DNA of 64,000 nt from a virus (lineage: Duplodnaviria; Caudoviricetes), in the IMG/VR virus record IMGVR_UViG_3300031994_000013, positions 103,251 to 167,250 of that record; one strand, written 5' to 3'. Shown piece after piece: positions 35,928-63,834 of this stretch. The translations under genes and the position numbers were made by a program. The number at the start of each line of letters is the position of its first letter. Position 1 is the stretch's first letter. The notes beneath the pieces are model-generated. The model ran no database searches. It was not told the DNA's origin and worked only from the letters and a program-made list of their open reading frames with translations.

Positions 35928-36210
35928 TTTCTGCTTGTGTTTAATGAGCACGAGCCTTGTAAAAGAAAATATAGTTCAGCGGGATACTGGCTTATACTAG
36001 TTGACATTTTCTTTAATACAATCTCCAGCGTGAGTAAAAACCGCCTTGGACTGGGTGAGATGCCTATCGTTGCGGCCGCCAACGAAGTAACGTAAACAGT
36101 TATGAGCGGTTATAATTACCTTGCTATCAGGTCTTAATTTAGGATAGCTACTTATAGGTAAGACTATACGGGTGCGGCGTTCGTCAGCTCAGAGATAGCA
36201 TGCCGAATTT

Positions 36211-36351
36211 GCCCGGTTAGCTCAGTCGGTAGAGCATGCGGCTGTGACAGAGAGATGATTTGGTAATCATGTGAGGGACGCCCACGTTGCGAGTTCAATT
36301 CTCGCCTCTGTATTAACCGCAGTGTCGGGGGTTCGAGCCCCTCACCGGGCG
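36211..36351 (+). tRNA. tRNA-Asn(GTT) interrupted by tRNA-like insert 36246-36313
   Basis: TGCGG CTGT|TAA CCGCA after removal. Confidence 0.9.
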
Positions 36352-36450
36352 GTCAAGTTGGAGGATAGAACAGGCAGCTATCGCCCATTGTTAGGAGATG
36401 CGGGAGTGTCGCCCCGCCCAGCATTAATTTTATAAGAATGAGGTAAATTT

Positions 36451-37258: not shown

Positions 37259-37264
37259 GATTTT

Positions 37265-37352
37265 CCTACTCAAGCATAATTGGTACATGCCACGGCCTTA
37301 TAAGCCGGAGACCCTCACAAGGTTAGTCCACGTTCAAGTCGTGGGAGTAGGA
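37265..37352 (+). tRNA. tRNA-Ile(TAT) with long variable region
   Basis: CCTACTC/GAGTAGG, loop CTTATAA, A73. Confidence 0.8.
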
Positions 37353-37355
37353 TTT

Positions 37356-37472
37356 TAGACCTGTCAGCAATTATTTCTTTTGCATGTGGAGCACGTATGT
37401 GATGGTTCGAATCCATCTTTGGGCCGATGCGCCCAAATAGCTCAATGGTAGAGCGCGTAATAAGTGGGTCTA
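37356..37472 (+). ncRNA. CAGCAA/Y-like RNA 3 with permuted tRNA domain
   Basis: TAGACC/GGTCTA; GATGGTTCGAATCCATC, TTTGGGC/GCCCAAA, TAGCTCAATGGTAGAGC. Confidence 0.8.
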
Positions 37473-37551
37473 GTTTTTATATGGAACTAATCTATCCTGA
37501 GTTCCTGCGGTTCAAGGATAGGGCGGTGGCTGCCCAAAGTCGCAATTATAT

Positions 37552-37669
37552 GGCCCCTTAGCCCAATTGGCAGAGGCAATAGACCATCAATAGCCAGAGC
37601 GAAATGAGGTCATCACTCATATTGATGTTCAAAATCTATCAAGTATCAGTTCGAATCTGATAGGGGCTA
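37552..37669 (+). tRNA. tRNA-Leu(CAA) interrupted by mini-tRNA insert 37585-37628
   Basis: ATAGA C|TCAAAA TCTAT after removal. Confidence 0.85.
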
Positions 37670-37748
37670 TTAAAAAAATCGCGGGACGCGAAGAAAAAAG
37701 AGTAATGCGTCTGCTTATATAATACTATTTATGTAGGAGGCGATAATT

Positions 37749-38354
37749 ATGAAAAAATGGGAAAAATTCTCTGAAAAAGAGTTGCTTGAGATTATTCAAA
37801 ATAGTCGAAGTTATAGAGAAGTCGCTCAAAAATTAGGTTATAATCCTGATAGTGGTAGTGGTATGAAAGCTATTAAGGATATGATAGAGACGAAACAATT
37901 TGATATATCGCATTTTTTAGGGCAGGGTTGGAATAAAAATAATTTTGATTATTCGCGTTTCCAGTATGGGAAAAATATTAAAGCCGTATTAATGTTAGAT
38001 GCTTTAATTAATTTACGCGGCAGAAAATGTGAAAAATGCGGTTTAACAAAATGGGAAAATTTTCCTATTCCACTAGAAGTACATCATATTGATGGAGACC
38101 ATTTGAATAATACATTAGATAATTTACAAATTCTTTGCTGCAATTGTCATGCTTTAACAGCGAATTTTAAAGGACGAAATCAGCTTAGCGTAGAACGACA
38201 AAATGAAAAAGTATCTGAAGAACAATTAGTAGAAGCATTAAAGACAACTTCTAATGTTCGTCAAGCTCTTTTAAAAGTTGGCTTGACTAGTCGTGGGCAC
38301 AATTATGATAGAGCATATGATTTGATATATAAATATCAAATAAAACAACAATAA
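37749..38354 (+). CDS. HNH homing endonuclease
   Basis: CEKC, LEVHHIDGDHLNN..NLQILCCNCH. Confidence 0.9.
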   Translation: MKKWEKFSEKELLEIIQNSRSYREVAQKLGYNPDSGSGMKAIKDMIETKQFDISHFLGQGWNKNNFDYSRFQYGKNIKAVLMLDALINLRGRKCEKCGLTKWENFPIPLEVHHIDGDHLNNTLDNLQILCCNCHALTANFKGRNQLSVERQNEKVSEEQLVEALKTTSNVRQALLKVGLTSRGHNYDRAYDLIYKYQIKQQ

Positions 38355-38359
38355 TATTA

Positions 38360-38462
38360 TAGGCGTTTTCAGCAATTACCTTTATAGGTTATGGGTTCGA
38401 GTCCCATTTTGCAATCCTTTTTGCGAATCGTCCAATAGGTAGGACAATAAATAAGACGCCTA
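38360..38462 (+). ncRNA. CAGCAA/Y-like RNA 4 with permuted tRNA domain
   Basis: TAGGCGTTT/AGACGCCTA; ATGGGTTCGAGTCCCAT, TTTGCAA/TTGCGAA, GTCCAATAGGTAGGAC. Confidence 0.8.
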
Positions 38463-38791
38463 GTATTTTAAAGATGGATTTTTTCCATCTTATTTTTATA
38501 ATTGACTTTTCTCTAAAATTATGATATAATTTTTTTAGAAAAAAGGAAATGAGGAAATAATATGGATAAGGAAACTCTAAGTAGCACTGCGACAAAAAGT
38601 CAATTTATTGATTCTATTTATAATTGGTTAATGCGCACGCTCGATGAGAAGGGCAACGGACAATATAAGGAATGTTTTCAAAAAGAGGGCTCAAGTATAA
38701 TTTGTTCTCTTCCAGATAATTATTTTAATAGTTATACTATTCCTCATGGCACTAAAATTGAAATGAAATTTATTAGTAAAAAGGGATAATA

Positions 38792-39226
38792 ATGAAAATT
38801 TATACTTCTTATTTCGCGCAAATGCGTAATTTTCCTAAAAATCTTGTTTCGCTTTCAACCGCAGTTTGGAATCCTAAATGGTTGCCGCTTGGGCGCGATA
38901 AGCAAGGTCATATTTGGCTAGATATTCCGCCGCTAAAGCCAGGATATAATTGTAATGGCTTATGTAATGGAAAATGTAATCCAAAGCATCCACAGGATTG
39001 TGCTTTTCTTCAAGAATATCGCAAACAGTTGAACGGTATAGATATTCATAATATTCTAAATGAATTACAAGTTTTAAAAAATGATATTGAAGTTGCGGAG
39101 AGCCTAGAGAATGTAGAGTTTGTGCTATTATTTTTTGAGACTCCGGATAATCCTTGTAGTGAGCGGCAAGTCGTTATTGAATGGCTTAAAGAAAATAATA
39201 TCGAAACTGAGGAATGGAGAAAATGA
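38792..39226 (+). CDS. DUF488-like protein
   Basis: MKIYTSYF, LLFFETP..CSER..W. Confidence 0.6.
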   Translation: MKIYTSYFAQMRNFPKNLVSLSTAVWNPKWLPLGRDKQGHIWLDIPPLKPGYNCNGLCNGKCNPKHPQDCAFLQEYRKQLNGIDIHNILNELQVLKNDIEVAESLENVEFVLLFFETPDNPCSERQVVIEWLKENNIETEEWRK

Positions 39227-39719
39227 TAAAAATTATTAAGCATGGGCACGCGCAATATCATATGACATGTAAATTTTGTGATTGTTTATTCTCTTTTGAA
39301 GACAGTGATATAAAATTTTCTGGTAATCAGCGAGATTGGATAGAATATATCGAATGCCCAGAATGCGGGCATGAGATTGATATTGTTAATCGTGCGTTCT
39401 ATAAGTTTAAGGAGAGTAAAGACTAATATAATGAAAGATAGGAAAATTTTTTTTATAGCAGTGTTAATTGCTATATTACTTTTTATAGGCGTAGTATTTT
39501 TACAAGAATCGTCCTGTAACATAGTATATAATAATGGCATTTGTACAAGATGCGGAGGACACTATATTTTTCAGCAGGCGGTAGGACATCGATATAATAT
39601 TCGATATATTTACCAATGTGATAAATGTGGCAAGTTAATTGAAATTAATTCTATTCGTTAATTATTTGACTTCTTTCTAAATTTATGCTATAATTATTAT
39701 AGAAAGTGAGGGAAAGAAA

Positions 39720-40067
39720 ATGAAGGAATACAGTATGAAATCTCATAATCGCCGCGCTCATCAGCGTTGGCTTAATAAGTTTTGCCGCGATGTTAATAAA
39801 TCTATTTATGATGATAATCTGTGGCGCGGGCGCTTTGTTGTAGAACAGGTTTCTACTCAGATGGATTGGTTTGAGGATAAAAGCGGTGGTATCCTTCGTT
39901 GTGTTCTTCGCTTTCGTGATAAGAAAACTGGCTGTACTAAGCTTTGTTATACCGATTGTCTTGAAGTTGCTTGGAATATGTTTTTTCAGATGAATGACTT
40001 TATTGTAAAAGATTGTGCTGTTTGGGATAAGGAAGACCCTTATAAGGAGATTGAATCATGGAGATAA
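39720..40067 (+). CDS. hypothetical phage protein
   Basis: promoter and RBS upstream; DNLWRGRF. Confidence 0.65.
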   Translation: MKEYSMKSHNRRAHQRWLNKFCRDVNKSIYDDNLWRGRFVVEQVSTQMDWFEDKSGGILRCVLRFRDKKTGCTKLCYTDCLEVAWNMFFQMNDFIVKDCAVWDKEDPYKEIESWR

Positions 40068-40265
40068 AGAGACCCGTTACTGTAGAGTTTAATTATTATA
40101 ATGATAATAACGAATTTGATGACGATGTTAATTTAACTTTTAGAACTACGCCAGATATGACTATTGGGCAATTACACGCTTTTTGTAAGCGTTTTGCTAT
40201 TGCACTTAGTTTTTCACCAAAGCAGGTTGAAGAAGCTTTTGGTGAAGATATAGAAGATAGAATTT

Positions 40266-40350
40266 AGAAGGGTGCCTGAGTGGTCAATAGGAGCGGTTTG
40301 CTAAATCGTCGTAGGGTAACCTACCGCAAGTTCGAATCTTGTCCCTTCTG
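40266..40350 (+). tRNA. tRNA-Ser(GCT)
   Basis: class II cloverleaf, G73. Confidence 0.9.
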
Positions 40351-40431
40351 TTCGCCAATTTAACTGGTTGGCGCGCCAGCTATGGATTAAATAGCGACCC
40401 AGCTCGCGGGCATTCTAAATAGCGAGCACGT

Positions 40432-40503
40432 ACCCTTCTAGGCTAACGGAAAGACCATACGGCTACGAACCGTAAAATGAAAGTTCGATTCTTTCGGAGG
40501 GTG
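40432..40503 (+). tRNA. tRNA-Arg(ACG)
   Basis: TACGG CTACGAA CCGTA; imperfect D stem. Confidence 0.8.
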
Positions 40504-40511
40504 TCAATTAT

Positions 40512-40621
40512 GCGGTGGTATCCAAGCAGACAAAGGGGCCAACCGGTAAGTTTGGTGCCTACGCCGGTATGCTAGCTAGAACCGTGGGCTTCGCAGGTGC
40601 AAATCCTGACCCGCCGCACCA
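40512..40621 (+). tRNA. aberrant Tyr-like tRNA with enlarged variable arm
   Basis: GCGGTGG/CCGCCGC-ACCA; loop CGGTAAG. Confidence 0.5.
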
Positions 40622-40629
40622 TTTATTAT

Positions 40630-40713
40630 GCGTCAGTGTGACTAGTAGCGAGGTCAGGTGACTGTAAATCACCCACATTAGAAACATCGGTGGTGCAATT
40701 CCATCCTGGCGCA
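40630..40713 (+). tRNA. tRNA-Tyr(GTA)
   Basis: GGTGA CTGTAAA TCACC. Confidence 0.85.
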
Positions 40714-40720
40714 TTAGCCG

Positions 40721-40792
40721 AGACCAGTCAGCAATAATTGTATTTTTTGCTAGAAATGCAGCGGGTCGGCTCCGCCTAAGATGAACTGGTCT
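40721..40792 (+). ncRNA. CAGCAA/Y-like RNA 5
   Basis: AGACCAGT/ACTGGTCT + CAGCAA. Confidence 0.7.
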
Positions 40793-40798
40793 AGTTTT

Positions 40799-40946
40799 GT
40801 GCCCGTAGCTCAGTTGGTAGAGCACTTGACTTTGGGGTAGTAATGTAAAGAGCATACTATTAGAGACGTCTAATAGAGGACAAGGTGCAATACCTTGATA
40901 CTCCACCATAATCAAGGGGTCGCGAGTTCGAGCCTCGCCGGGCACA
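40799..40946 (+). tRNA. tRNA-Lys(TTT) interrupted by tRNA-like insert 40834-40908
   Basis: CTTGA CTTT|TAA TCAAG after removal. Confidence 0.9.
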
Positions 40947-40950
40947 TTAT

Positions 40951-41022
40951 AGGAGCTTAGGACAATGGCTAGTCTTTCTGTCTCCAAAACAGACGATGGG
41001 CGTTCAAATCGCTCAGCTCCTG
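40951..41022 (+). tRNA. tRNA-Trp(CCA)
   Basis: cloverleaf, loop CTCCAAA. Confidence 0.9.
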
Positions 41023-41038
41023 TCACTTATGAAAAAAT

Positions 41039-41114
41039 GCGTCTGAACCCTGACGGTCGGGGGAGGGCCTGCAAAACCCTTTTTTATTAGTTGGTTCAAC
41101 TCCAACCAGGCGCT
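41039..41114 (+). tRNA. tRNA-Cys(GCA)
   Basis: loop CTGCAAA, U73. Confidence 0.85.
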
Positions 41115-41842
41115 TAAAGGAGAGATAATATTATGAATGAACTTAAAAGATTAGTTAACCAAAAGACTGACCGCCCCGTAACACCTACGACTACAACAAC
41201 CGTGCCAGTCTCACAGTCTGTAACAGCCACTTCCCTTCAATATGGTTGGATTTGTCCTAAATGTGGCTCTGTGATGGCACCAAATCAAACAAGTTGTATT
41301 TTCTGCATTCCAACTTTTAATGTTACGACTGCGACGCCAAATATGTCACCTGTAGTAATTTGTACTAGTAAAGGTTATAGTCGGGACTGAAATATTTGAC
41401 TTTTATTCAAATTTGTGCTATAATATATACATAAAGAATGAAAGAAAGGATTGATAACAGTATGCGTAAGTTGGTTTTTTCTTCTTCTTGGAGTAGGGTT
41501 AAGCAAGCGAAGATGCTAGATGACCCTCAGTAACTGGCGCTTTATCATCAGTAGGTGATACGAAATTACGGTAAGTCGTTATACGGCGCCACCGTTTTTT
41601 TAAAAAAAGAAAGGTAGAATAAGTTATGTTTAGTTATGTAGTTACTTTTTTCGACAATGAAATTAGAGCAACCACGACCGAAAAGGGCATTGTGGCGGCG
41701 GAAACCTATGGCAAAGCCGCGGATAGGCTTGTGAGCTTTTATGGAAAATCTTTTCTAATGACTATGGCTCTTACTGAACTTAATGACATTCTAACCGAAG
41801 AAGAAATTACAGAAGAGTTTGAAACTCAGGGAGAAGATTAAA

Positions 41843-42088
41843 ATGTATCATCGTACTCATATTCGTTTAATTACACAAACCGATGCAGCAAATTTCGTAG
41901 CGAGTCTTAATCGTGATGGCACGACTGACCACTATGTGCTTGAAACAGTAGATGGTAAGGTCCGTGTTAGTGCCCGTTCATTACTTGGCGTGCTTTATTT
42001 TGTTTCAGAGCATAATAAGGAAACTTATTTAGTTAATGAAACTAATGATGGAGTGATTCCAAGCGGTATCGACCAGTATCGTATTTAA
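41843..42088 (+). CDS. HPr-like protein
   Basis: AANFV...VSARSLLGVL (Ser46-like motif). Confidence 0.6.
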   Translation: MYHRTHIRLITQTDAANFVASLNRDGTTDHYVLETVDGKVRVSARSLLGVLYFVSEHNKETYLVNETNDGVIPSGIDQYRI

Positions 42089-42101
42089 TGCGATACTTTG
42101 A

Positions 42102-42232
42102 TGGCGTGTAGCCAAGTGGTTAAGGCACAGGACTTTCAGGCAATAGCATAAGTAATGCCATAGAATAATAGTTCAAATCTATTTTGCCTGTGACTCCTGT
42201 ATTCGTAGGTTCGACCCCTACCACGCCAGCCA
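42102..42232 (+). tRNA. tRNA-Gln(TTG) interrupted by tRNA-like insert 42137-42191
   Basis: CAGGA CTTT|GAC TCCTG after removal; encoded CCA. Confidence 0.92.
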
Positions 42233-42237
42233 TTTAT

Positions 42238-42299
42238 TAGGCTTTGTCAGCAACTATTACAAAAATTTGACTTGAAATCAAAGGAACAAAGAAAGCCTA
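42238..42299 (+). ncRNA. CAGCAA/Y-like RNA 6
   Basis: TAGGCTTT/AAAGCCTA; internal TTTGA CTTGAAA TCAAA. Confidence 0.75.
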
Positions 42300-42309
42300 G
42301 AAATTTTTA

Positions 42310-42409
42310 TAGACCAGCACAGCCATTTATTTTAACAATGGATAAATTATTTTTTTCTCAATAAAAAAAATATAGAAGGTTCAAATCCTTCAAAATTAAA
42401 ACTGGTCTA
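42310..42409 (+). ncRNA. CAGCCA/Y-like RNA 7
   Basis: TAGACCAG/CTGGTCTA; CTCAATA loop + T-arm GAAGGTTCAAATCCTTC. Confidence 0.7.
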
Positions 42410-42764
42410 GTTTTTATTACAAGAAAGGACGCAAAATAATGGAAGTAATGTATCATCGTAAGAACGGTAAGCGCTATGAAGTTTATGATTATATAACAGA
42501 TAAGCATACCATTGCTATTTGTTACGATACGGCACAGGCGGGGCAGTGCGGCCAGGGTTGGTGTAGAATTCCTTTGAAAGAATTGGTTCCAGAATGTCAT
42601 GCAAATAAGACTACAGGGCAATTTGAGTCTAACACTATTAAAAATGCCATTAAACGAAATTTACAACCAGTAGCTTGGCGTTGTACTGATGGTACAGTAT
42701 TTGACCATTCTAAGATTGATGAAGCAATTGAATATCAAAGAACACTTATGACGACGGAGCAAGA

Positions 42765-43205
42765 ATGAGACAGTTAATAATCGCGCGAAAAGATTTACAG
42801 ATGAGCCCTGGTAAATTGGCGGCACAAGTAGCACATGCAAGTTGGGCATTTTTATCGCAGCAAATTCGCAGCTGTACTATTAACGAACAAGATACTCAAA
42901 ATACGTGGATTAAATTATGTATTAATACTGATACGTATAATGAATGGTTTTGTGGTATCTTTACAAAAACTGTTTGCGAAGCTAAAAATTATAATCAACT
43001 GATGAAAGCAGTTGACTATGCACGCGAATTGGGGTTAGAAGAGGGAGTAGATTTTTTCCTCATTAAAGATGCTTGTCTCACGGAGCTTACTCCCGAAGAA
43101 ACTGATGAAAATGGTGTTGGACGCACATTAACTTGTATTGGTTTTCGTCCATTACCTGACGAAATCGCCCATGCGATTTCAAAGCATTATCAACTTTATA
43201 AGTAA
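42765..43205 (+). CDS. pth2: peptidyl-tRNA hydrolase Pth2 family
   Basis: RKDLQMSPGKLAAQVAHA, IKDACLTE, TCIGFRP. Confidence 0.9.
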   Translation: MRQLIIARKDLQMSPGKLAAQVAHASWAFLSQQIRSCTINEQDTQNTWIKLCINTDTYNEWFCGIFTKTVCEAKNYNQLMKAVDYARELGLEEGVDFFLIKDACLTELTPEETDENGVGRTLTCIGFRPLPDEIAHAISKHYQLYK

Positions 43206-43208
43206 ATA

Positions 43209-43338
43209 ATTGTGGTGGCGGAATAGGTAGACGCTAGACGGTTTGAACCCGTGCATCAAGGAAGACTTGGCTTGGCTATGAGGTCATAGATTTTACTCAG
43301 AAGGAAATCATGTAAGGTGCAAATCCTTACCCACAATT
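43209..43338 (+). ncRNA. tRNA-like RNA (Leu-type D/T arms, no normal anticodon arm)
   Basis: ATTGTGG/CCACAAT, GGCGGAATAGGTAGACGC, GTAAGGTGCAAATCCTTAC. Confidence 0.7.
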
Positions 43339-43427
43339 TAGAATGTAACGGCTGATTACATATACATTTTCGCAATCTATATAGATACAATCAAGTTACC
43401 CCATGCGATGCAAGGTAACATCAGCCA

Positions 43428-43513
43428 TCGGCCTACACAGCAATTAATTTCAAGAAAATTCTATCTGTTGAAGAAAGCATATTCTAGCGGGTTGAAAACC
43501 CGTAATAGGCCGA
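43428..43513 (+). ncRNA. CAGCAA/Y-like RNA 8
   Basis: TCGGCCTA/TAGGCCGA; GCGGG TTGAAAA CCCGT. Confidence 0.75.
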
Positions 43514-43518
43514 GTTAT

Positions 43519-43708
43519 GCTCTTGTAGCTCAATGGTAGAGCAGCGCACTTGTCGAGTTAGTTTAAAGTAAAACACCCGAATCACAGGGAAAAGACCGTA
43601 TGATAAACTAATTGATTGACGAATCAATTAGGCGAAGATATGTGAGTTCGTAACTCACACTCGGCTCCAGTAATGCGCAGGTTGTAGGTTCAAGTCCTAT
43701 CGGGAGCT
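43519..43708 (+). tRNA. tRNA-Thr(TGT) interrupted by tRNA-like insert 43552-43669
   Basis: GCGCA CTT|GTAA TGCGC after removal. Confidence 0.9.
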
Positions 43709-44526
43709 TTTAACTGTCATCTTAGGAAGTGTTATTTATGAGGACGACGGCAGAAAAACGACATAATGATTATACGAAAGCAATCCGTAAGCGTAGGATT
43801 GACCGCGAGACACAGCCCAGTGGATATGACTGGTACAATAATCTTCATCAATATAGTAAAAATAAGATTCATTGTTCTTGTCCAATGTGTTCTGTGAAAA
43901 CTAATAATCGCGGCAATAATGGTTGGAAACCCAATACCTTATGGCGTATCACCGATCAAAAGAAGTTGGATGCTTTACAATATAACGAGGAAGATGAATA
44001 ATCTTCCTCGTTTTTTATTTGACTATTTCTTAAAATTATGATATAATTTATATACAATATTGGATAGGCGAAATATTAATCAAGAAAAGAGGGAGCCATA
44101 ATGGAAAAGAAAGAATTAGTTGCAGGTAAGCGCTATCAATGGCCAGATGTAACTCCTGGCGGCCGCATGATTAATGGTCTTTTTACTGGAAAATACGAAA
44201 AGAACGGTAACGCTTTATTACAGTGTCGTAATGGCGACATCTGGTCTGTTTCACCACAAAATTGTGAGCCAATGCCAAGAAAGGAAAAATGATATGAAGA
44301 ATTTTATTAAATTAACTAATACTGATGGGACTGCACTTTATATTAATTATAAAATTATTGAAAGTTTATCTCAACATAAAGATAAAGATTATACTTATAC
44401 TATCCTAGCCACAATTGGGTCAGAAGATGGTTTTTATAGAGTAAAAGAATCACCAGAAGCAATTCTAGCATTAATTGATGTTTTGACAAATTAAAAAAAA
44501 TATAGTATAATGAAAGGAATGATAGT

Positions 44527-45012
44527 ATGCGAAAGCCTATTCTTTATATACTCTGCGGTTGTCCAGGATGCGGAAAAACATATTGGGCAAATAAATTTAT
44601 GTATAATCTTATTAATACAAAGTATGTTTCGCGCGATGAAATTCGCCTTTCTTTACTTAATAATGATGAAGAATATTTTTCACACGAAGAAGAAGTGTTT
44701 ACTAAATTTGTAGCTATGATAAGAGCTAATTTAGTGGATGGATATGATTGTATTGCAGACGCCACTCATTTAAATGTAAAATCTCGCAAAAAGCTTATCC
44801 ATGCTCTTGATTTTTATGGTAAATTAGATTGTCAAATTATTTTTGTATATTTCAACGCTCCTTTGGAAGTATGTCTTGGCCGCAACGAACAGCGTGAAGG
44901 TCGTGCTCGTGTTCCTGTAAATGTAATTCAATCTATGCGAGAACGCTTTCAAAAGCCAGCTATGACAGAGGATGAAAGATGTATTGGACTTATGCTAATG
45001 AAAGGATATTAA
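44527..45012 (+). CDS. polynucleotide kinase-like P-loop protein (AAA_33)
   Basis: GCPGCGKT, SRDEIR, DATH, RNEQR. Confidence 0.85.
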   Translation: MRKPILYILCGCPGCGKTYWANKFMYNLINTKYVSRDEIRLSLLNNDEEYFSHEEEVFTKFVAMIRANLVDGYDCIADATHLNVKSRKKLIHALDFYGKLDCQIIFVYFNAPLEVCLGRNEQREGRARVPVNVIQSMRERFQKPAMTEDERCIGLMLMKGY

Positions 45013-45290: not shown

Positions 45291-45956
45291 ATGGGAAAGA
45301 TTTATAAAGTTACAAATAAAATTAATGGTAATATTTATATTGGCCAAACACGACAACCAATTAATACTCGTTGGTTAAAGCACTGTTATTCAGCAGAAAC
45401 CTCTAATGATAAAGATTATTTTTGTCCTCTACATAATGCTATTCGTAAATATGGACGAGATAGTTTTCTAATAGAAGAAATTGAAGACTGTGATAATGAT
45501 TTATTAAATGAACGTGAACGTTATTGGATTCAATTTTATGATAGTTATAATAATGGTTATAATGCCGCTTTGGGTGGAGAAGGGCATACTAAATATGACT
45601 ATGATAAAATTATAGATTATTTTTTAAAACATGGCAATAATCTTTTAGCTACTTGTCAAGAATTTAATATTTATGACCAAGTGGTGTATACAGCTTTACA
45701 ATCTAAAAATATTGATTATAAAGCATTAAAAAATATAAATCCAAAATGTAAATATGATAAATGGATTCTATTAGTAGAACACAATCTTATTTTCAAACAC
45801 ATAACGGACATTGACCTTTATTTACATAAAAATAATGCACATGGAAATATACGACGATGCCTAAATGGAATTACAGAAAAAGCTTATGGCTATCATTGGA
45901 AGGAGATAGAAAAAGATGGAAATCTTTTTAACCTCGGATACTCATTTTTCACATAA
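45291..45956 (+). CDS. GIY-YIG homing endonuclease
   Basis: KIYKVTN..YIGQT, RW..H, E..WI, GYN; NUMOD1-like AYGYHW tail. Confidence 0.9.
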   Translation: MGKIYKVTNKINGNIYIGQTRQPINTRWLKHCYSAETSNDKDYFCPLHNAIRKYGRDSFLIEEIEDCDNDLLNERERYWIQFYDSYNNGYNAALGGEGHTKYDYDKIIDYFLKHGNNLLATCQEFNIYDQVVYTALQSKNIDYKALKNINPKCKYDKWILLVEHNLIFKHITDIDLYLHKNNAHGNIRRCLNGITEKAYGYHWKEIEKDGNLFNLGYSFFT

Positions 45957-46509
45957 TCAACAATTTATATATGAGTCCCGTGGTTTTACAAATGTTCAAG
46001 ACATGAATGAGACAATAATGGAAAATTGGAATAAAATTGTACCATATGACGCACTTATTTATCATCTTGGAGATATGGCATTAAATAATTTAGATGATGC
46101 AATTAAATATATTAAAAATTTAAATGGTAAAATTATTTGGCTTCGGGGTAATCATTGTACTGATAATAAAATTACTAAAATTCTTGAAAACTGTCCAAAT
46201 GTAACAATGCCAAATGAAATGTATGCCACTGTACTGAAATATAGGAAACTAACTTGTTATCTTTCACACTATCCTACCTTGACAGCCAATTACGATGATA
46301 AACATTTCAGCCAGCATGTAGTGAATTTTCACGGTCATACTCATCAGCAAACTAACTGGCTTAATCCAACGAATCCATTTATGTATCACGTGGGAATGGA
46401 TTCTCATAATTGCACACCAATCCATATTGAAGAGGCAATAAGTGACATTCGCAACAGATGGAATGAAATCGGTCAGCTTCCAGTTTCTATGCAGCCAGAA
46501 GATATATGA
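45916..46509 (+). CDS. calcineurin-like metallophosphoesterase
   Basis: SDTH, HLGD, GNH, SHYP, HGHTH. Confidence 0.9.
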   Translation: MEIFLTSDTHFSHNQQFIYESRGFTNVQDMNETIMENWNKIVPYDALIYHLGDMALNNLDDAIKYIKNLNGKIIWLRGNHCTDNKITKILENCPNVTMPNEMYATVLKYRKLTCYLSHYPTLTANYDDKHFSQHVVNFHGHTHQQTNWLNPTNPFMYHVGMDSHNCTPIHIEEAISDIRNRWNEIGQLPVSMQPEDI

Positions 46510-48228: not shown

Positions 48229-48307
48229 TCAAAATTATGTTATAATAAATACATAAAGAAAAAACCTGCGGTCTTGACAAAAGACTAAGATGAAAAGGAG
48301 AAAAAAT

Positions 48308-49834
48308 ATGGCTAATACTTTTATGAACGCGATGAAGTCCCAGAATAATTTTAAGCTTACAGAGAATCAAGCAGTAGCTAAGAAGTCAACCATGTCTAAG
48401 CTTTATGACCTATTTGCTCTTGGCGGAGCTTACCGTACCCGTAGTGAGAGTGATTGTGTGCTTCTCTTTAAGGAAGCCTATATGGAGAGCCCTCGATATG
48501 CGATGAAGTGCCTGACGTACCTCAGAGATATTTTGGAGGGTCAAGGCGAGCGTCGTTTCTTCCGTGTATGCCTGCATTGGCTTGGTAATAACTATCCTGA
48601 AGCCGCCCGCCAGAATCTGCGTGAGTGGGTAGATGGTAACTTTATCCGTTGGGACGACCTGTTTGTACTCTTCGATACTCCTGTTGAGCGTGAAGTAATG
48701 GCACTCATTCGTCATCAGCTAACCCGCGATATGGCTATTTATAATGATGATCCTCGGGCATCGGTATCTCTTTGCGCGAAGTGGATGCCTTCCGAGAATA
48801 CATCTAGTGCTACTACTCGTCATAACGCTCGCCGCGTTATGGCTGCTCTTGAGCTTACTCCTCGTGAGTATCGTAAGATGCTCTCTATGCTGCGTGAGCG
48901 TATTAAGGTAGTAGAGCGTCTTATGTCTCAGAACCGTTGGGAAGAAATTGACTTCTCTAAGCTTCCTTCTCGCGCTGGTCTTATCTATCGTAATGTGTTT
49001 AAAAGTAAGGGCCTGATTGCCGAAAAGTACAAGGCTTTTGCACAGGATAAGACTACTAAGGTCAATGCTGGTACTCTATATCCTTATGATGTAGTGGCGG
49101 CCGCCCTTAAGTGTATGGGTAATGGTTACGGTGAGCCTGCCCTGAACGATACCGAGCGCCTTATGGTAAACAAGTATTGGGACAACCTTACTGATTACTT
49201 TAAGGGCGCAACTCTCAACGCTATGGTAGTTTGCGATACCTCTGGGTCGATGACTTGGAGCGGCAATGGCACCGTAAAGCCTATTGACGTTGCTGTATCT
49301 CTTGCACTCTATACCGCAGAGCGTGCTAAGGGGCCTTTTGCAAATCACTATATCTCCTTCAGCCATACTGCTCGTCTAGTTGAGACTAAGGGTGTGGATT
49401 TTTGCGATAAGGTAGCACGCATCGTAAGTACCAATCTTTGTGAGAATACTAATCTACAAAGCGTATTTGACCTAGTGCTAAATACTGCGATGCAGAATAA
49501 TGTTGATCCAGAAGATATGCCTAAGACTCTTATCGTCGTAAGTGATATGGAAGTTGATTCAGCAACTGGGCACTATGGTTATCAAAAGACGGACTTTATG
49601 TCTTCTATTCGTCAGAAGTGGGAAGCTAGGTGCGGCGGCTGGTATGATTTTCCCAACCTTGTGTATTGGGATGTCAATGCTCGCAATAACACCTTCCTTG
49701 AGGATTCTAAGACTGGCGTAACCTTCGTAAGCGGTTGTTCTCCTGTACTATACGAGCAAATTATGTCTGGTAAGACGTCTATAGATCTAATGCTTGAAAA
49801 ACTAAATAGTGAGAGATATAACGCTATTCACTAA
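48308..49834 (+). CDS. DUF2828 / TROVE(Ro60)-like protein with vWA domain
   Basis: RDI..GQGERR, RWDDL, AKWMPSE, LYPYD, VCDTSGSM, SDME, SGCSP. Confidence 0.85.
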   Translation: MANTFMNAMKSQNNFKLTENQAVAKKSTMSKLYDLFALGGAYRTRSESDCVLLFKEAYMESPRYAMKCLTYLRDILEGQGERRFFRVCLHWLGNNYPEAARQNLREWVDGNFIRWDDLFVLFDTPVEREVMALIRHQLTRDMAIYNDDPRASVSLCAKWMPSENTSSATTRHNARRVMAALELTPREYRKMLSMLRERIKVVERLMSQNRWEEIDFSKLPSRAGLIYRNVFKSKGLIAEKYKAFAQDKTTKVNAGTLYPYDVVAAALKCMGNGYGEPALNDTERLMVNKYWDNLTDYFKGATLNAMVVCDTSGSMTWSGNGTVKPIDVAVSLALYTAERAKGPFANHYISFSHTARLVETKGVDFCDKVARIVSTNLCENTNLQSVFDLVLNTAMQNNVDPEDMPKTLIVVSDMEVDSATGHYGYQKTDFMSSIRQKWEARCGGWYDFPNLVYWDVNARNNTFLEDSKTGVTFVSGCSPVLYEQIMSGKTSIDLMLEKLNSERYNAIH

Positions 49835-49904: not shown

Positions 49905-50825
49905 GTGGTAATTATGGTTACTCTTATAGATTTAACAGGAAAGAAAATAGATAAATTATTAGTATTAGAAAAAGCTTTGCCGCATAATAATCACGTTTGG
50001 TGGAAATGTCAATGTGATTGTGGAAATATATGTGAAAAAAGTAGCGAATATTTACGTTCTAGCACTCGACCGCGGGATTGTGGATGCTCTAAATTGAAAA
50101 ATATTAAAAAGAAAAAAGCAGAAGAACGTTATAATAAACTAGTGGGACAACGATTTGGAAGATTATTAGTAGTTTCTCGTACAGAAAGAACTGCGGGAGA
50201 AAAGAAAATTCCAATTTGGCTTTGTAAATGTGATTGTGGTAACTATAAAGAAGTTCCAAGTTATAGCCTTTTAAAAGGTCATACTCAATCTTGTGGCTGT
50301 CTTATTATAGATAATAAATGGGTTGATATTACAGGGCAAACTTTTGGAAGATGGACTGTTCTTAAACGAGATCCTAATAATCATAAAAAATGGATTTGTA
50401 AATGCGAATGTGGAACTGAAAAATCGGTGGATGGATATAACTTAAGAATTGGTCAAACACAATCTTGTGGTTGTATTAATTACTCTATCGGAGAATATAA
50501 TATAACCCAATTATTAAAGACTAATAATATAAAATTTATTAAAGAATATACTAATTCAGAATTACAGTTAAAACGTTTCGATTTTGCTATTTTGAACGAA
50601 CAAGAACAAATTGTTCGTTTAATTGAATTTGATGGTGAACAGCATTATACAGAACGTAATCGTTGGAATAATAGTGATTCTTTAAAAACGATTCAACAGC
50701 GCGACAAAGAAAAAAATCAATATGCACTTTCTCATAATATTCCGCTAGTCCGTATTCCCTATTGGGAACGAGACAAGATTACTTTAGAAATGATTATGGG
50801 AGATCAATATTTAGTCAAAGAATAA
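49905..50825 (+). CDS. putative homing endonuclease (Cys-repeat DNA-binding units + PD-(D/E)xK-like domain)
   Basis: 3x GQ.FG..W.CxCxCG..SCGC; RFDF..IEFDGEQHY..RD..K. Confidence 0.8.
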   Translation: MVIMVTLIDLTGKKIDKLLVLEKALPHNNHVWWKCQCDCGNICEKSSEYLRSSTRPRDCGCSKLKNIKKKKAEERYNKLVGQRFGRLLVVSRTERTAGEKKIPIWLCKCDCGNYKEVPSYSLLKGHTQSCGCLIIDNKWVDITGQTFGRWTVLKRDPNNHKKWICKCECGTEKSVDGYNLRIGQTQSCGCINYSIGEYNITQLLKTNNIKFIKEYTNSELQLKRFDFAILNEQEQIVRLIEFDGEQHYTERNRWNNSDSLKTIQQRDKEKNQYALSHNIPLVRIPYWERDKITLEMIMGDQYLVKE

Positions 50826-51112: not shown

Positions 51113-51907
51113 ATGAACGACTGGATGAAAGCCGTTGAATACCATCACTCGTATGTAAAGGCGATGGCAGACGAACACAATGATTATCAGGTAATTTGGA
51201 CTTCTTTAATCGGGAGTCAAAATTATAACTTAGAAAATGAAAATAGTGACTGCGATACGTTTTCTATCGTTCTCCCGAATTATTTTGATTTCATCTCTAA
51301 TACTAATCTTATTAGTTTTGAAACCGAAATTGGCGATGGCAAATGCGTGGTTAAGGATTTTCGTCTTATGATGAATTTGCTTCGTAAAACTTCTCCTAAC
51401 AGTATCGAAGTATTTTCCTCAAAATATAAAGTTTTTGAGCCCGAGTATAAGGAAATTGAAAAGCAATTTTTCTCTGATTCAGAAACTATGTTTTATCTTA
51501 TTCACGCCAACTATAAGAATATGCTTAACGCAATCGCCGGTATGTGTTATCAGCTTCACGGTCGCAACATGTCAGATGGTAAGCGTTATTCACACGCCCT
51601 GCATCTCGATGATATGCGCCAGCTTTTTACTAAAACTCGTGAAGGTGATATTCTTTCTTTTCGGCATAAAGCAATTAACGAACTCGCACTTATTGCAAAA
51701 TTTCAACCTGCAACAGAACAAGAAAATATTTTTTATCGTGAAGAAACTATGAAAATTGCTGATGTTTTAAAAGCTTATAGCAATAAGTTTGAATACACTG
51801 ATGCTGAAAAAAGAGTAGAATATTTAGCTAATAATTTAATTAATCGACTTCAGTTTGAAGTTACCAAAATTTATCTAGAACAAAATAATTTTAGTTATAA
51901 GGAGTAA
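51113..51907 (+). CDS. putative nucleotidyltransferase
   Basis: GSQNYNL..ENSDCD (GS-x-DxD), PNSIE. Confidence 0.7.
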   Translation: MNDWMKAVEYHHSYVKAMADEHNDYQVIWTSLIGSQNYNLENENSDCDTFSIVLPNYFDFISNTNLISFETEIGDGKCVVKDFRLMMNLLRKTSPNSIEVFSSKYKVFEPEYKEIEKQFFSDSETMFYLIHANYKNMLNAIAGMCYQLHGRNMSDGKRYSHALHLDDMRQLFTKTREGDILSFRHKAINELALIAKFQPATEQENIFYREETMKIADVLKAYSNKFEYTDAEKRVEYLANNLINRLQFEVTKIYLEQNNFSYKE

Positions 51908-57021: not shown

Positions 57022-57432
57022 AATGGAATGGATCTTTTATATATTACTCGTCGTAAATGTTGCTGTAACCATAAATCAAATTATAGATATTTTTGATAGT
57101 TTATATTTGGAAGATTATTTTATTTGGAAATCTATACCTATATATGTATTAAATGTTTGGGAAGATATGGAAGATAACTATAATCTTGCTGGTCGTATTA
57201 TAGTGGCCGTACTACTTTCTATCATTACACTACCAGCGATGATAGTAACATCCGTATTTACATTTATTATTCTTATTATTGTAGTTCTACCAGTGACAAT
57301 ATTTAATCTTTTGTTTAAGAAAAAATAATTTATATCCCTCAGTTCTCACGAACCGAGGGTCTTTTTTATTTGACTTATTTCTAAATTTATGTTATAATTT
57401 TTATGTAAGAAAAGGAAAGGAAGATTGAAAAA

Positions 57433-58761
57433 ATGTCTTATTATGGTTATGTAGTAAAGGTGGAGCATCTGCGCCCGCACTCTAATGCTGATAGGCTTCA
57501 GGTGGCTACTTTCTTCGGAAACGATACTATCGTTAGCCTTGATACTCAGCTTGGCGAGATGGGTATTTACTTTCCTGTAGACGGTCAGCTTTCTGAGCGT
57601 TATTGCGCAGTAAATGATCTGGTGCGCCGTAAGGATGAGAACGGTAACTACTGCGGTGGTTATCTTGACCCTGACAAGCGCAACATCAAGGCTATCAAGC
57701 TTCGTGGCGAGAAGTCTGATGGTTTGTTTATGCCTATCACTTCACTGGCCGATTTCTGCACTATCTCCGATCTTAAGGTGGGTGACCGCATTGATGTTCT
57801 GAATGGTGAGGAAATTTGCCACAAGTATATTCCTCATAGCAATGCATCCGTGCAATATCATGGCGCGAAGGCACCTCGCAAGGCAAAGGCTAACATTGCT
57901 CCTACCTTCTACGAGCACGTAGATACCGAGCAGCTTGCTTATAACCTCGATAAGTTTAAGGTCGGCGATACTGTACAATTGACCCTGAAGATGCACGGCA
58001 CTTCTGGCCGTACTGGCTATCTGCCTCTACTTCAGAAGCGTTCTATCTGGGATAAGATTTTCCATCCTCACAAGGAGATTTATGAGTATGGTTATATAAC
58101 CGGAACTCGTCGTGTAGTTCTTGCGGGCGACCGCAAGGGCGGTTACTACGAGTCTGATGACTTCCGTCGCGCGATGGCGGCTAAGTTTGAGGGCAAGCTT
58201 CGTAAGGGCGAGGTAGTGTATTACGAAATCGTGGGCTTCCAGGGCTACGAGGGCGCACCTATCATGTCTGAGGTTCAGAACTCTAAGGTGAAGGACCCTG
58301 AGTTCTCTAAGCAGTATGGTAAGACCACCATATTCTCTTATGGTTGCGCGGTTGAAGGTGGATATACTGACGACCAGCCTTGCTGCGAAGTATATGTCTA
58401 TCGTATGACTATGGTAAACGCCGATGGTGATGTGGTAGAGTATTCTCCCGCACAAATTAAGGAGCGCTGCGAGCAGATGGGCGTTCATACTGTAATGAAG
58501 TTCGAGACCTTCGTAATTCCTGAGAATATAAATCCCGGCGAGTATGTTCTCCGTAAGGTAGAACAGTACTTTGATGGTCCTGACCCTATCGGTAAGACCC
58601 ATGTGCGCGAAGGTGTAGTGGCGCGTATCCTTAACCGTCCTAACTTCGCAGTTTATAAGCATAAGAATTTTAGTTTCAAGGTTCTTGAAGGCATCGCTAA
58701 GGATGAGGCCGTTGCGCCGGATATTGAGGAGGCTCAGGAACTAATTGAAGAAGGAGAATAA
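57433..58761 (+). CDS. ATP-dependent RNA ligase (Rnl2/DRB0094-like) with N-terminal OB-like domain
   Basis: HSNADRL, KLRGEKSDG; motif I KMHGTS, YEIVG, REGVV, KHKN..F. Confidence 0.88.
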   Translation: MSYYGYVVKVEHLRPHSNADRLQVATFFGNDTIVSLDTQLGEMGIYFPVDGQLSERYCAVNDLVRRKDENGNYCGGYLDPDKRNIKAIKLRGEKSDGLFMPITSLADFCTISDLKVGDRIDVLNGEEICHKYIPHSNASVQYHGAKAPRKAKANIAPTFYEHVDTEQLAYNLDKFKVGDTVQLTLKMHGTSGRTGYLPLLQKRSIWDKIFHPHKEIYEYGYITGTRRVVLAGDRKGGYYESDDFRRAMAAKFEGKLRKGEVVYYEIVGFQGYEGAPIMSEVQNSKVKDPEFSKQYGKTTIFSYGCAVEGGYTDDQPCCEVYVYRMTMVNADGDVVEYSPAQIKERCEQMGVHTVMKFETFVIPENINPGEYVLRKVEQYFDGPDPIGKTHVREGVVARILNRPNFAVYKHKNFSFKVLEGIAKDEAVAPDIEEAQELIEEGE

Positions 58762-59232
58762 AAATGACTAGGGAAATTCGTATTCTGCAACTAAAGGCTC
58801 GGCGCGCAGTCCTACTCTCACGCGACCGTGAAAATCGTAATATTGTAAAGAAAATTGAACGTGAAATTAAAGCCCTTGAAGCCGCTTAATGCGGCTTTTT
58901 TATTTGACTATTCTTAAAATTTATGATATAATACTTATAGAAAGTGAGGGAAAAGAATGATTACTAAAGCCGCAGTTAAAATTTTTGATATTAGGCAAAA
59001 TAAGGAAGTTATTCTGCCTGTCCATCACCACGCAGATGCCTTCGAGATTCTATATAATCTTGGCTATAAAAGGAATATTGATTATATCGAAATCGCTCAA
59101 GGCTTTTTAGATGAAGATGGCGTGTTTCTTAATAGGCATCTGGCTTGGCTAGATGCGATTTATAGCAAACAAATTCCCGCAGACTGTGATTATATGATAA
59201 AGGAACTTTATAGTGAAGATATTTATTGAGGA

Positions 59233-60132
59233 GTGGTAATAATGCGAGATATATATGTCATGGCAGATTTGCATGGATGCTATGAACTTTATAGCGCTAT
59301 GATAGATTGGTGTTTCGCACAAGATAACGAATGTACTGTTGTGTTTTTAGGCGATGCATGTGATAGAGGCCCATATGGTTACAAAATTATGCGCGAACTA
59401 CTTGATAATCCACAAGTTATCTATCTAAAAGGCAATCATGAGGATATGTTTGTCCAAGCCGCGCATGAAATTATAGGTTTTTGTGCTCAATCTGATGAAT
59501 TGTATAATCAACTTAAATCTAAAAATAGGCAATTTGCTCAAGAATTTTGTCGTAATAGCACAAATATTACTATGCCAGCTCTTTCTCTTTGCTTATATAA
59601 TGGCGGCGCTGAAACTATACAAGATTGGATTGCAGATGGCTCAGATGAAAATTTCGTAGATGCCATTGAGAACCTTCCGCTCACTTTCTCTTATGAAAAT
59701 TTCGACTTTTGCCACGCTGGTTCAACTTATGAATATTTTAAGCGGGCATCTGATGCGGAATACAATAAAACCACAGTAGATGGTAATGTGAAGCAACAAA
59801 TGCTTTGGGATAGAAAGTTGTTGGCACTTGGTTGGGAAACTGGACGCATTGGCGTCTTCGGGCATACCCCCACAGTATCACTCCCCAAGGGAATCTATGG
59901 GAACGATCAAAGCCTTAAAAATGCACATCCGTGTGTATGGCATGATAAAATGGGTGAGTGGTCAAAGAGTGATAAGCGCCAAGGCTTAAAAATTGATATG
60001 GATACCGGCGCTGTGTGGTCGTATCGCGCGTATGTTCTTAACTGTTTAACTGGTAAAATATTTGGATTCTATGAAGAAACCCATGAAGATGGTTCCATTA
60101 TAAAAATTATAGATGAACAAAAAGTTGTATAA
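59233..60132 (+). CDS. Ser/Thr phosphatase-like metallophosphoesterase
   Basis: DLHG, GDACDRG, GNHE, HAG, GHTP, DTG. Confidence 0.9.
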   Translation: MVIMRDIYVMADLHGCYELYSAMIDWCFAQDNECTVVFLGDACDRGPYGYKIMRELLDNPQVIYLKGNHEDMFVQAAHEIIGFCAQSDELYNQLKSKNRQFAQEFCRNSTNITMPALSLCLYNGGAETIQDWIADGSDENFVDAIENLPLTFSYENFDFCHAGSTYEYFKRASDAEYNKTTVDGNVKQQMLWDRKLLALGWETGRIGVFGHTPTVSLPKGIYGNDQSLKNAHPCVWHDKMGEWSKSDKRQGLKIDMDTGAVWSYRAYVLNCLTGKIFGFYEETHEDGSIIKIIDEQKVV

Positions 60133-63312: not shown

Positions 63313-63834
63313 ATGAATAATACTGAACGCCGAAGTAAAGAAAAAATTATAAATATAGAAATTTATACTGACGGGTCATGTAAAAAGGTTGGAAAAGAAA
63401 TGACTTTCGGTGGTTGGGGCTATTTAGTTATACTTGATGGAAAAGAAATTTATGAGGCGTCTGGTGGTGAATATAAAACTACAAACCAGCGTATGGAACT
63501 TACTGCGGTTTCGGAGGCTTTAAAATATATTCAAACTATTAGACGCCCCAGCGAAAAAGTTATTATTTATAGCGATTCTGCTTATGTTATAAATTGTTAT
63601 ACGCAAAATTGGTACATAAATTGGATGCATAACGGCTGGGTAAATACAAAACAAGAACCAGTCGCTAATCAAGATTTATGGTGGAATATTATACCATTTT
63701 TTGACAATTTTTGGTATACCTTTAGAAAAGTAAAAGGGCATGCTGACAATTTTTGGAACAATAAGTGTGATGAATTAGTCCAAAAAGAAGCAGAAAATTT
63801 AAAGCGCAATTGGCGTGGAGAGCAAAAAATATGA
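63313..63834 (+). CDS. rnhA: ribonuclease HI
   Basis: YTDGS, TNQRMEL, SDSAY, NQDLW, KVKGH, N.CD. Confidence 0.93.
   Translation: MNNTERRSKEKIINIEIYTDGSCKKVGKEMTFGGWGYLVILDGKEIYEASGGEYKTTNQRMELTAVSEALKYIQTIRRPSEKVIIYSDSAYVINCYTQNWYINWMHNGWVNTKQEPVANQDLWWNIIPFFDNFWYTFRKVKGHADNFWNNKCDELVQKEAENLKRNWRGEQKI

Follow-up and report, generated by a model that had tools for sequence, protein, structure and literature searches.

A divergent Rnl5-type RNA ligase in a probable phage RNA-repair module, and its possible part in rejoining tRNAs interrupted by tRNA-like inserts

Phage T4 Pnkp and Rnl1 repair anticodon-loop breaks made by PrrC, and archaeal and eukaryal tRNA splicing proceeds by an endonuclease plus RtcB or Trl1. 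The repair of host-cut tRNA by a phage kinase/phosphatase and a ligase is summarised as a concept in an account (PMC7824862) that also describes phage RNA-repair systems composed of ATP-dependent ligases, kinases, phosphoesterases and ligase-associated nucleotidyltransferases, some of which add a ROT/TROVE protein with a tRNA-like partner. Trl1 is described elsewhere (PMC6379707). Here, we analysed a window of 64 kb, the last 64 kb of a virus record of 167,250 bp that is complete and has direct terminal repeats (IMG/VR record IMGVR_UViG_3300031994_000013, positions 103,251 to 167,250; coordinates are those of the window unless stated otherwise). It contains an RNA ligase gene (57433..58761, + strand), an uninterrupted ATG-started frame of 442 aa, downstream of a tRNA array in which five tRNAs are interrupted by inserts. 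The best explanation overall, held with moderate confidence, is that the ligase belongs to an RNA-repair module and also rejoins the five interrupted tRNAs.

The gene product matches the PHROGs family phrog_968, ‘RNA ligase’, with an E value of 3.7e-69. Matches to curated models were found as well: TIGR02306 RNA_lig_DRB0094 (E 2.7e-15, 56.1 bits versus a cut-off of 151), PF21189 OB (residues 7–102, 23.9 bits) and PF09414 RNA_ligase (residues 180–417, 22.3 bits), the two Pfam matches lying below their gathering score of 27 bits. Judged by sequence, the protein is a distant relative of the curated Rnl5 models, not an equivalog. A PDB search with the single ligase sequence returned nothing relevant, and a profile search was required. 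The profile, built from 105 diverse homologues, matched the Naegleria ligase NgrRnl (E 1.8e-10) along NgrRnl residues 8–180, the part that comprises the OB domain and motif I. An AlphaFold (AF2) model of the ligase was obtained with a pLDDT of 93.6; when it was searched with Foldseek, the top 13 matches were all NgrRnl structures (best E 3.1e-18, TMt 0.70), aligned to the ligase over its full length at TMt 0.67–0.70. T4 Rnl2 formed a second tier (E 8.5e-7, TMq 0.28), and the editing ligase, Rnl3 and Trl1 ligase domains ranked far below NgrRnl, those of Trl1 being weak matches (E 2e-3 to 4e-3). On sequence and model together, the gene very probably encodes an active ATP-dependent RNA ligase of a divergent Rnl5 type.

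The covalent nucleotidyltransferase motifs I, III, IV and V are all present, with an Asp to His change in motif I. K186, the motif I lysine of KMHGTS (codon at 57988..57990, + strand) and the predicted adenylylation site, aligns with NgrRnl K170 (KLDGSS), and the REG that contains E393 aligns with the REG of NgrRnl. Six residues, K186, E265, E393, G394, K409 and K411, are invariant across the 105 sequences. The motif I lysine, the motif III and IV glutamates and the motif V KxK are shared with the Rnl5 enzymes NgrRnl and DraRnl (DRB0094), as are the OB residues D50 and K131, which align with NgrRnl D53 and K121, described as holding the ATP gamma-phosphate and metal (PMC7261155). The domain plan is also that of Rnl5: an N-terminal OB domain (approximately residues 1–132; 57433..57828, + strand; delimited by PF21189, the NgrRnl profile alignment and model strands 5–131), then a nucleotidyltransferase domain (approximately residues 160–425; 57910..58707, + strand; delimited by PF09414, conservation, profile and fold), and no C-terminal domain, only about 30 residues following motif V in the model. 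The phage ligase differs from the Rnl5 enzymes in being about 100 residues longer (442 versus 340 aa) and only 14–16% identical in structural alignment, in its scores below the curated cut-offs, and in a motif I of KxHG instead of the KLDG of NgrRnl, H188 being found in at least 90% of the clade. A sequence-only reading of the window had proposed an Rnl2/DRB0094-type ligase joining 3'-OH to 5'-P ends. Profile, fold and TIGR02306 agree with the DRB0094/Rnl5 half of this label, and Rnl5 ligases join 3'-OH to 5'-PO4 (PMC7261155); the Rnl2 half does not fit, the Rnl2 plan being an N-terminal nucleotidyltransferase domain with a distinctive C-terminal domain, whereas the order here is OB then nucleotidyltransferase.

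The same reading had noted a resemblance between the N-terminus, through the peptides HSNADRL (residues 16–22) and KLRGEKSDG (residues 89–97), and tRNA-binding OB domains. Foldseek matches of the OB domain included PheRS beta (E 6e-5 to 4e-4) and YtpR (E 7.6e-4); profile matches to PheRS beta were weak (E 0.05–0.8), and Pfam tRNA_bind did not match the N-terminus at E values up to 1. The likeness of the modelled fold to tRNA-binding OB folds of the Trbp111/PheRS-beta B2/YtpR type is weak but real, and tRNA binding is only putative, the role demonstrated for the OB domain in Rnl5 enzymes being to aid lysine adenylylation (PMC7261155).

The five candidate substrates lie in the tRNA array. ARAGORN found 10 ordinary tRNAs in the window and five more once introns were allowed; the Rfam tRNA model independently spans three of these five. 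All are on the + strand: tRNA-Asn(GUU) at 36210..36352, with a 68-nt tRNA-like insert (36246–36313); tRNA-Leu(CAA) at 37551..37670, with a 44-nt tRNA-like insert (37585–37628, boundaries from the model); tRNA-Lys(UUU) at 40798..40947, with a 75-nt insert ending in ACCA (40834–40908); tRNA-Gln(UUG) at 42102..42232, with a 55-nt insert (42137–42191); and tRNA-Thr(UGU) at 43519..43708, with a 118-nt insert ending in TCCA (43552–43669). In each insert, the fold consists of a closing stem and a T-arm-like hairpin abutting its 3' strand. The sites of insertion in the anticodon loop, placed by model, vary between about 32/33 and 36/37. The interrupted tRNA closest to the ligase gene lies 13.7 kb upstream of it (end at 43708), in agreement with the distance of about 14 kb given earlier.

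The geometry of the inserts was examined with a strict rule, which takes the best 7-bp acceptor-like stem with at most one mismatch and with its 3' strand directly after the T-arm, and which cuts 5' of the first base of the stem and 3' of the base that comes after the 3' strand of the stem, or 3' of CCA if CCA follows that base. It was tested on nine genes, the five of the window and four from contigs L044, L046, L012 and L100. In all nine, the two cuts, each placed independently of the other, took out precisely the required length (equal 5' and 3' offsets), and the excision product was called a normal tRNA by ARAGORN without introns, with a 7-nt loop restored. The 3' end of the insert was the discriminator in three cases and the discriminator plus CCA in the other six. 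Only one of 76 interrupted calls passed the rule in a first pattern scan, none of 19 in a second, for a double T-loop pattern, and none of 43 in a fourth, for longer inserts. Products across all strict cases were Asn, Leu, Lys, Gln, Thr, Ile(UAU) and Arg(UCU). Two of the identities listed above result from the rule, ARAGORN having called 40798–40947 Gln and 42102–42232 Glu. Among the loci compared, the nearest uninterrupted tRNAs are 79–80% identical for Lys(UUU) and 82–83% for Gln(UUG), and the Gln anticodon loop of the homologues is identical to that of the predicted product, a prediction that preceded sight of the homologues. The Asn and Thr exons share 84–86% identity with uninterrupted homologues and do not differ from them in the anticodon arms. 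Exons so conserved, together with exact excision, suggest selection for the rejoined product.

Cleavage by RNase P gives the upstream piece a 3'-OH, and cleavage by RNase Z gives the downstream piece a 5'-phosphate, while RtcB-type ligases require 3'-P and 5'-OH ends. Halves released by such cuts would therefore suit an ATP-dependent ligase without kinase or phosphatase, and would not suit RtcB. The earlier suggestion that the ligase joins the ends left by RNase P and RNase Z gains from this analysis, the inserts being exact tRNA-like units whose removal regenerates a canonical tRNA in every case. Every activity and every substrate in the scheme that follows is one that we infer. Host RNase P would cut at position +1 of the insert, and the second cut, 3' of its discriminator or CCA, would be made by a 3' tRNA endonuclease; excision would free a second small RNA, and the tRNA halves left behind would carry 3'-OH and 5'-P at the break. 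The ligase would be adenylylated on K186, AMP would then pass to the 5'-phosphate RNA end, and attack by the 3'-OH would seal the break, so that one enzyme would reseal the halves of all five tRNAs with no healing step.

The phage appears to have no other enzyme for this step. The complete genome contains no RtcB and no second PF09414-type ligase, the sole PF09414 match being this gene; PF09511, the all-helical C-terminal domain of the Rnl1-type ligases that specialise in anticodon-loop breaks, had no match in the genome, nor did it have any in the control genomes. On sequence evidence, this gene is the only detectable RNA ligase of the phage. We put forward, tentatively, that it rejoins the interrupted tRNAs as a co-opted repair enzyme, and possession of a repair ligase might then be what lets such inserts settle in phage tRNA genes.

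Such a process would share with archaeal and eukaryal splicing the removal of anticodon-loop inserts by proteins or ribonucleoproteins, not by self-splicing, and the need for a ligase to join the halves. It would differ in several respects: the phage inserts lack a bulge-helix-bulge motif and are themselves tRNA-like, their positions vary, general tRNA end-processing enzymes could cut them, and the predicted 3'-OH and 5'-P ends need no healing. That a bacterial virus should splice tRNAs by a protein-dependent pathway, enabled by an Rnl5-like repair ligase, is a possibility that we regard as somewhat doubtful. In the literature searched, supplements not covered, no paper was found that describes phage tRNAs with tRNA-like inserts or how these would be spliced.

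A narrower role is also possible, though we do not favour it: the ligase would seal host-inflicted breaks with a kinase and phosphoesterases, and would have nothing to do with the interrupted tRNAs. The interrupted genes would then exist to release the inner tRNA-like RNAs, or their halves would be rejoined by a host enzyme or not at all. The six of nine inner units that encode CCA look like functional RNAs on their own, as expected if release were the purpose, but the exon halves are as conserved as ordinary tRNAs, exact excision restores the loop in 9/9 genes, and host ligases of the RtcB type need ends unlike those predicted here. RNA data were looked at over 33800–43800, in two RNA-library and two DNA runs out of 24 runs found, all stored as contigs. 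The RNA-library contigs were colinear with DNA across the Leu and Gln inserts and gave the unspliced form only, which is at most weak evidence for repair alone and speaks neither for nor against splicing, since contigs cannot reveal rare junctions. Contig joints at 40824/40917 and 43234/43307 were considered as splice junctions and rejected, other letters lying between their two sides, which makes them other tRNAs or variants. Separately, a segment of about 72 nt at 43234–43310 is replaced or skipped in metagenome contigs of several runs; ahead of tRNA-Thr, it may represent an element of tRNA size that varies.

The gene neighbourhood bears directly on the choice between these roles. Every gene from the tRNA array to the ligase is on the + strand. 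After the array come, in order, a polynucleotide 5'-kinase (44527..45012; PF13671, phrog_505, with PDB matches to Pnkp1, T4 Pnk and the CthPnkp kinase domain), a GIY-YIG homing endonuclease (45291–45956), a metallophosphoesterase (45916..46509; phrog_547), a glycosyltransferase, a DUF2828/DUF7788 protein (48290..49834) with a Ro60/TROVE fold in its AF2 model, an HNH homing endonuclease within the RNA-repair set (49905–50825) and a nucleotidyltransferase (51113..51907; phrog_388), a candidate ligase-associated Pol-beta enzyme (RlaP family). Further on are an endolysin, a small membrane protein and the ligase, followed by a calcineurin-type, NinI-like metallophosphoesterase (59233..60132, + strand) and an RNase H gene (63313–63834). 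In relatives, the kinase gene adjoins or overlaps that of the phosphoesterase; here the GIY-YIG gene comes between them.

Conservation of this context was surveyed in 80 IMG/VR loci with a ligase 52–79% identical to the phage enzyme, neighbours being counted within 10 kb. The ligase was found with the components of a heal-and-seal module: a kinase in 64 loci, a nucleotidyltransferase in 64 and a phosphoesterase in 27, with the NinI-like phosphoesterase in 24. A Ro-like gene was near the ligase in 55 loci and directly adjoined it in many; the recurring order was Ro-like, ligase, nucleotidyltransferase, kinase. No replication genes were among the conserved neighbours. In four ligase-bearing relatives, the portals are 30–37% identical to that of this phage and the ligases 64–74%, so that the module is far better conserved than the virion; a single-sequence portal search for relatives lacking the ligase found nothing. 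Mycobacteriophage Bromden combines the ligase with a polynucleotide kinase and ordinary tRNAs. Because the repair-gene context is conserved and the ligase is present in phages with ordinary tRNAs, its conserved role would be repair, not splicing. The ligase thus probably belongs to a phage RNA-repair module of an already described kind.

Within this module, located just after the tRNA array, the ligase would be the sealing enzyme. The kinase and phosphoesterases would turn 5'-OH and 2',3'-cyclic or 3'-phosphate ends into ligatable ends, accompanied by the Ro60-fold protein, tRNA-like RNAs and the nucleotidyltransferase, and the likely use would be to mend RNAs, tRNAs among them, that host ribonucleases cleave in the course of infection. 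The arrangement resembles that of T4 Pnkp and Rnl1 in placing phage kinase/phosphatase activities and an ATP-dependent ligase beside phage tRNAs, and in its likely purpose of reversing host tRNA cleavage; it differs in that the ligase is Rnl5-like, not Rnl1, and in that the kinase and phosphoesterase are separate proteins. Nicks of another sort might be the target instead, either in RNA strands of RNA:DNA hybrids in replication or repair, or during processing of Ro-associated tRNA-like RNAs. Rnl5 sealing is Mn-dependent, and NgrRnl and DraRnl are described as sealing nicks with an RNA 3'-OH strand (PMC7261155) and DraRnl as helping radiation survival (PMC5397189), and both the RNase H gene and the frequent adjacency of Ro-like gene and ligase would accord with such a function. 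It is nevertheless improbable, given conserved neighbours devoid of replication genes and partners (kinase, phosphoesterase, nucleotidyltransferase) that suit RNA-end healing.

The sequence-only reading had suggested following the co-occurrence of this ligase clade with interrupted tRNAs across phages. Starting from the ligase, a strict nested-insert tRNA was found within 10 kb in only 5 of the 80 loci, corresponding to three distinct sequences. Among ligase-bearing relatives, one of 12 tRNAs is interrupted in G003, and the single long gene of G005 does not pass the strict rule. In the reverse direction, pattern scans made without reference to the ligase gave strict cases in eight contigs. Two of these carry the ligase (E ~1e-165), G093 (82% complete) and G096 (69%). 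The other six have no ligase match and are fragments (3–51% complete), in which absence of the ligase neither supports nor refutes the link; summed completeness predicts about 2.9 detections if every insert-bearing phage had the ligase. The controls, 49 contigs from the fourth scan, which gave no strict case (roughly 19 genome equivalents), gave no close match and two weak ones (E ~1e-12). The ligase is enriched among insert-bearing contigs, a real enrichment in a small sample with kinship uncontrolled. Matches to the ligase in three of six candidates (of nine looser ones) from a double T-loop scan were given no weight, these candidates having been chosen before the strict detector. The count of 2/8 against 0/49 speaks for the expected association; the ligase in phages without inserts speaks against it.

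A ligase dedicated to splicing, acting mainly on the halves of interrupted tRNAs, is very unlikely. Homologues number at least 8000 in a set of 5.8 billion proteins, with 2307 matches in a representative protein library and 375 matching records from cultured phages, mostly of Mycobacterium, Microbacterium, Gordonia, Prevotella and Bacillus. The clade is far wider than the inserts, genomes with no interrupted tRNA carry the ligase, and retention of the ligase in lineages without inserts is largely seen already. The fitting end chemistry, the status of sole phage RNA ligase, the weak OB likeness and the co-occurrence signal would all agree with a dedicated enzyme; the breadth of the clade and the rarity of nested inserts near the ligase would not. 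In some homologues (P0122, P0126, P0142 and others of about 790–813 aa), an intein with Hint and LAGLIDADG parts interrupts motif I at about residue 187. Inteins commonly occupy conserved functional sites, and this location would suit an active site of importance.

The proposal that the repair ligase also rejoins the five interrupted tRNAs was weighed against several points. The ligase occurs without nested inserts in G001 (0/18 tRNAs), PBC2 (0/19) and Bromden, and none of the 36 tRNAs of the ligase-bearing G004 is of the nested-insert class. Its scores lie under the curated cut-offs of TIGR02306, PF21189 and PF09414. Characterised Rnl5 enzymes are described as sealing duplex nicks (PMC7261155, PMC4408790), and a broken anticodon loop differs from a duplex nick. 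RNase P and RNase Z ends need neither kinase nor phosphoesterase, so that the conserved partners point to other substrates. The insert-bearing contigs may all belong to one broad phage group, in which case the co-occurrence is confounded by kinship. Also counted in favour of a link to splicing was the promoter class common to the ligase gene and the tRNA array. The family, the fold, the intact catalytic motifs, the gene context, the insert geometry and the status of sole detectable ligase are established. The candidate tRNA splicing ligase of the sequence-only reading is strengthened by the end chemistry and by the lack of a second ligase, and weakened by the conserved repair context and by phages with ordinary tRNAs; the kinase, phosphoesterase, Ro-like and nucleotidyltransferase context and the presence of the ligase in phages with solely ordinary tRNAs also speak for repair alone.

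The Ro-like protein of the module was recognised by structure. PDB sequence searches with the DUF2828 protein did not detect a likeness to Ro60, and a literature search on ‘DUF2828’ found no functional study. Its model was built from 26 sequences (pLDDT 81.7); among the Foldseek matches listed, the top 11 are all Ro60/TROVE (E 9e-8 to 6e-5), among them Rsr of D. radiodurans and a Ro60 from a Thermus phage. The set resembles the bacterial rsr-yrlBA-rtcBA RNA-repair operon and Ro60/Y RNA particles (PMC7790460) in that genes for a Ro60-fold protein, for tRNA-like non-coding RNAs and for an RNA ligase stand together. It differs in that the phage ligase is ATP-dependent (3'-OH/5'-P), not RtcB, and in that the Ro-like protein is DUF2828/DUF7788, with no TROVE family recognised by sequence.

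A second class of tRNA-like genes, about 115 nt long, is associated with this protein. These genes keep the acceptor stem, D-arm and T-arm and have no anticodon loop, which is replaced by a variable hairpin and a conserved (U/A)ACAGCAA-like motif. They form tandem arrays directly upstream of DUF2828 Ro-like genes in a widespread family (examples: L039:6770–7124, L068:6317–7088, L043:1706–2261, L050:2186–2703, L076:6884–7134 and L078:6294–7076). In 14 of 34 assessable loci they lie 70–180 nt upstream of the Ro-like gene, and in many loci roughly 3 kb upstream of the ligase. Of 33 contigs with this class, 31 also have a Ro-like gene and only 10 the ligase; among contigs with other types of insert, a Ro-like gene occurs in one of six. 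In Rfam, no family except tRNA reaches threshold on these genes. They are best read, by analogy, as putative Y-RNA-like partners of the Ro-like protein: bacterial YrlA RNAs are described as encoded beside Ro60 orthologues and as mimicking tRNA, and tRNA-like modules of Y RNAs as able to serve as RNase P substrates (PMC4201824). A view of the 115-nt genes as interrupted tRNAs was rejected, the insert being a hairpin plus the ACAGCAA-like motif, tied to the Ro-like gene. Because this class differs from nested inserts, a reverse count on all long tRNA-like genes (ligase in 17/79 contigs, 5/24 near-complete ones) has no bearing on splicing.

Two signals of expression had been attributed to the ligase gene, an own consensus promoter and strongly biased codons (AAG, GAG, CGT, TTC), and both were confirmed. 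The sigma-70-type promoter TTGACT-17-TGnTATAAT lies at 57370..57398 (+ strand), with 11/12 matches and the TG present. The genome holds 81 promoter-like sites with at least 11/12 matches, versus 11.4 +/− 3.6 in shuffles, and for this reason the ligase promoter is taken as genuine but not special, one member of a common class. The same TTGACT/TG variant precedes the tRNA array at eight sites (33406 to 41396), the Ro-like gene (48218), the nucleotidyltransferase (50853) and RNase H (63258). Over the whole genome, the 81 near-consensus sites come in two flavours: perfect TTGACA-17-TGnTATAAT sites precede almost every short gene at genome 78–100 kb, and the TTGACT flavour is scattered across the tRNA and RNA-repair region. 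Read from the sequence, a purine-rich ribosome-binding stretch (AGGAAAGGAAG, 57413..57423, + strand) lies about 10 nt 5' of the ATG. The upstream unit is closed by a hairpin and T run at about 57338–57365, seen by eye, where the terminator scan gave no call. On the other side, the transcription unit includes a 41-aa frame from the ORF list (58764..58889, + strand) and an intrinsic-terminator-like hairpin followed by a T run, found by the terminator scan (58878..58898, + strand).

As to codons, AAG makes up 100% of Lys codons in the ligase gene (genome median 28%), GAG 69% (22%), TTC 68% (17%) and CGT 57% of Arg codons (27%), and the GC content is 47.9% versus a genome median of 36.5%. By a composite score, the codon usage is strongly atypical, the gene ranking second among the 151 ORFs with 100 aa or more. 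High expression of the ligase is a fair reading of this bias. Most other top-ranked ORFs cluster at genome 83–100 kb, in a block rich in 12/12 promoters, and seven of the 10 top-ranked ORFs scanned had no PHROG family match.

Some further features of the tRNA array and of the relatives were recorded. A skipping-rope RNA, above gathering score, lies at 36354–36425 directly after tRNA-Asn, and sub-threshold cow-rumen-3 and cow-rumen-4 matches lie inside the array (35932–36076 and 33439–33497). The segments 37393–37461 and 38360–38465 are weak matches, below gathering score, to the Y RNA-like family YrlA; the first can be read as a tRNA-like module in circular permutation, with a T-arm, a closed acceptor-like hairpin and a D-arm in that order. 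The relative G002 (IMG/VR, 193,102 bp), which bears the ligase, has 71 Rfam tRNA matches, unusually many for a phage. Portal genes of the relatives G005, G004, G001 and G002 contain 5–11 in-frame TAG codons (L322–L325). Relatives also have tRNAs with anticodon CUA (L083:10186–10280, L086:8105–8197), and G004 one with UCA. These sequences suggest stop-codon recoding in those relatives; the portal frame of the phage studied here is open under table 11.

Rnl5 ligases are widespread, and their physiological substrates have been described as uncharted (PMC5397189). An insert geometry that predicts ligase-ready ends provides a concrete and testable natural substrate for an Rnl5-type ligase. Should the rejoining prove false, the gene would still have a well-defined place in a large clade of phage RNA-repair ligases, most of them unannotated. 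If true, it would represent a third route of tRNA intron removal, after self-splicing and endonuclease/ligase splicing, and the first to be built from ordinary tRNA end-processing enzymes.

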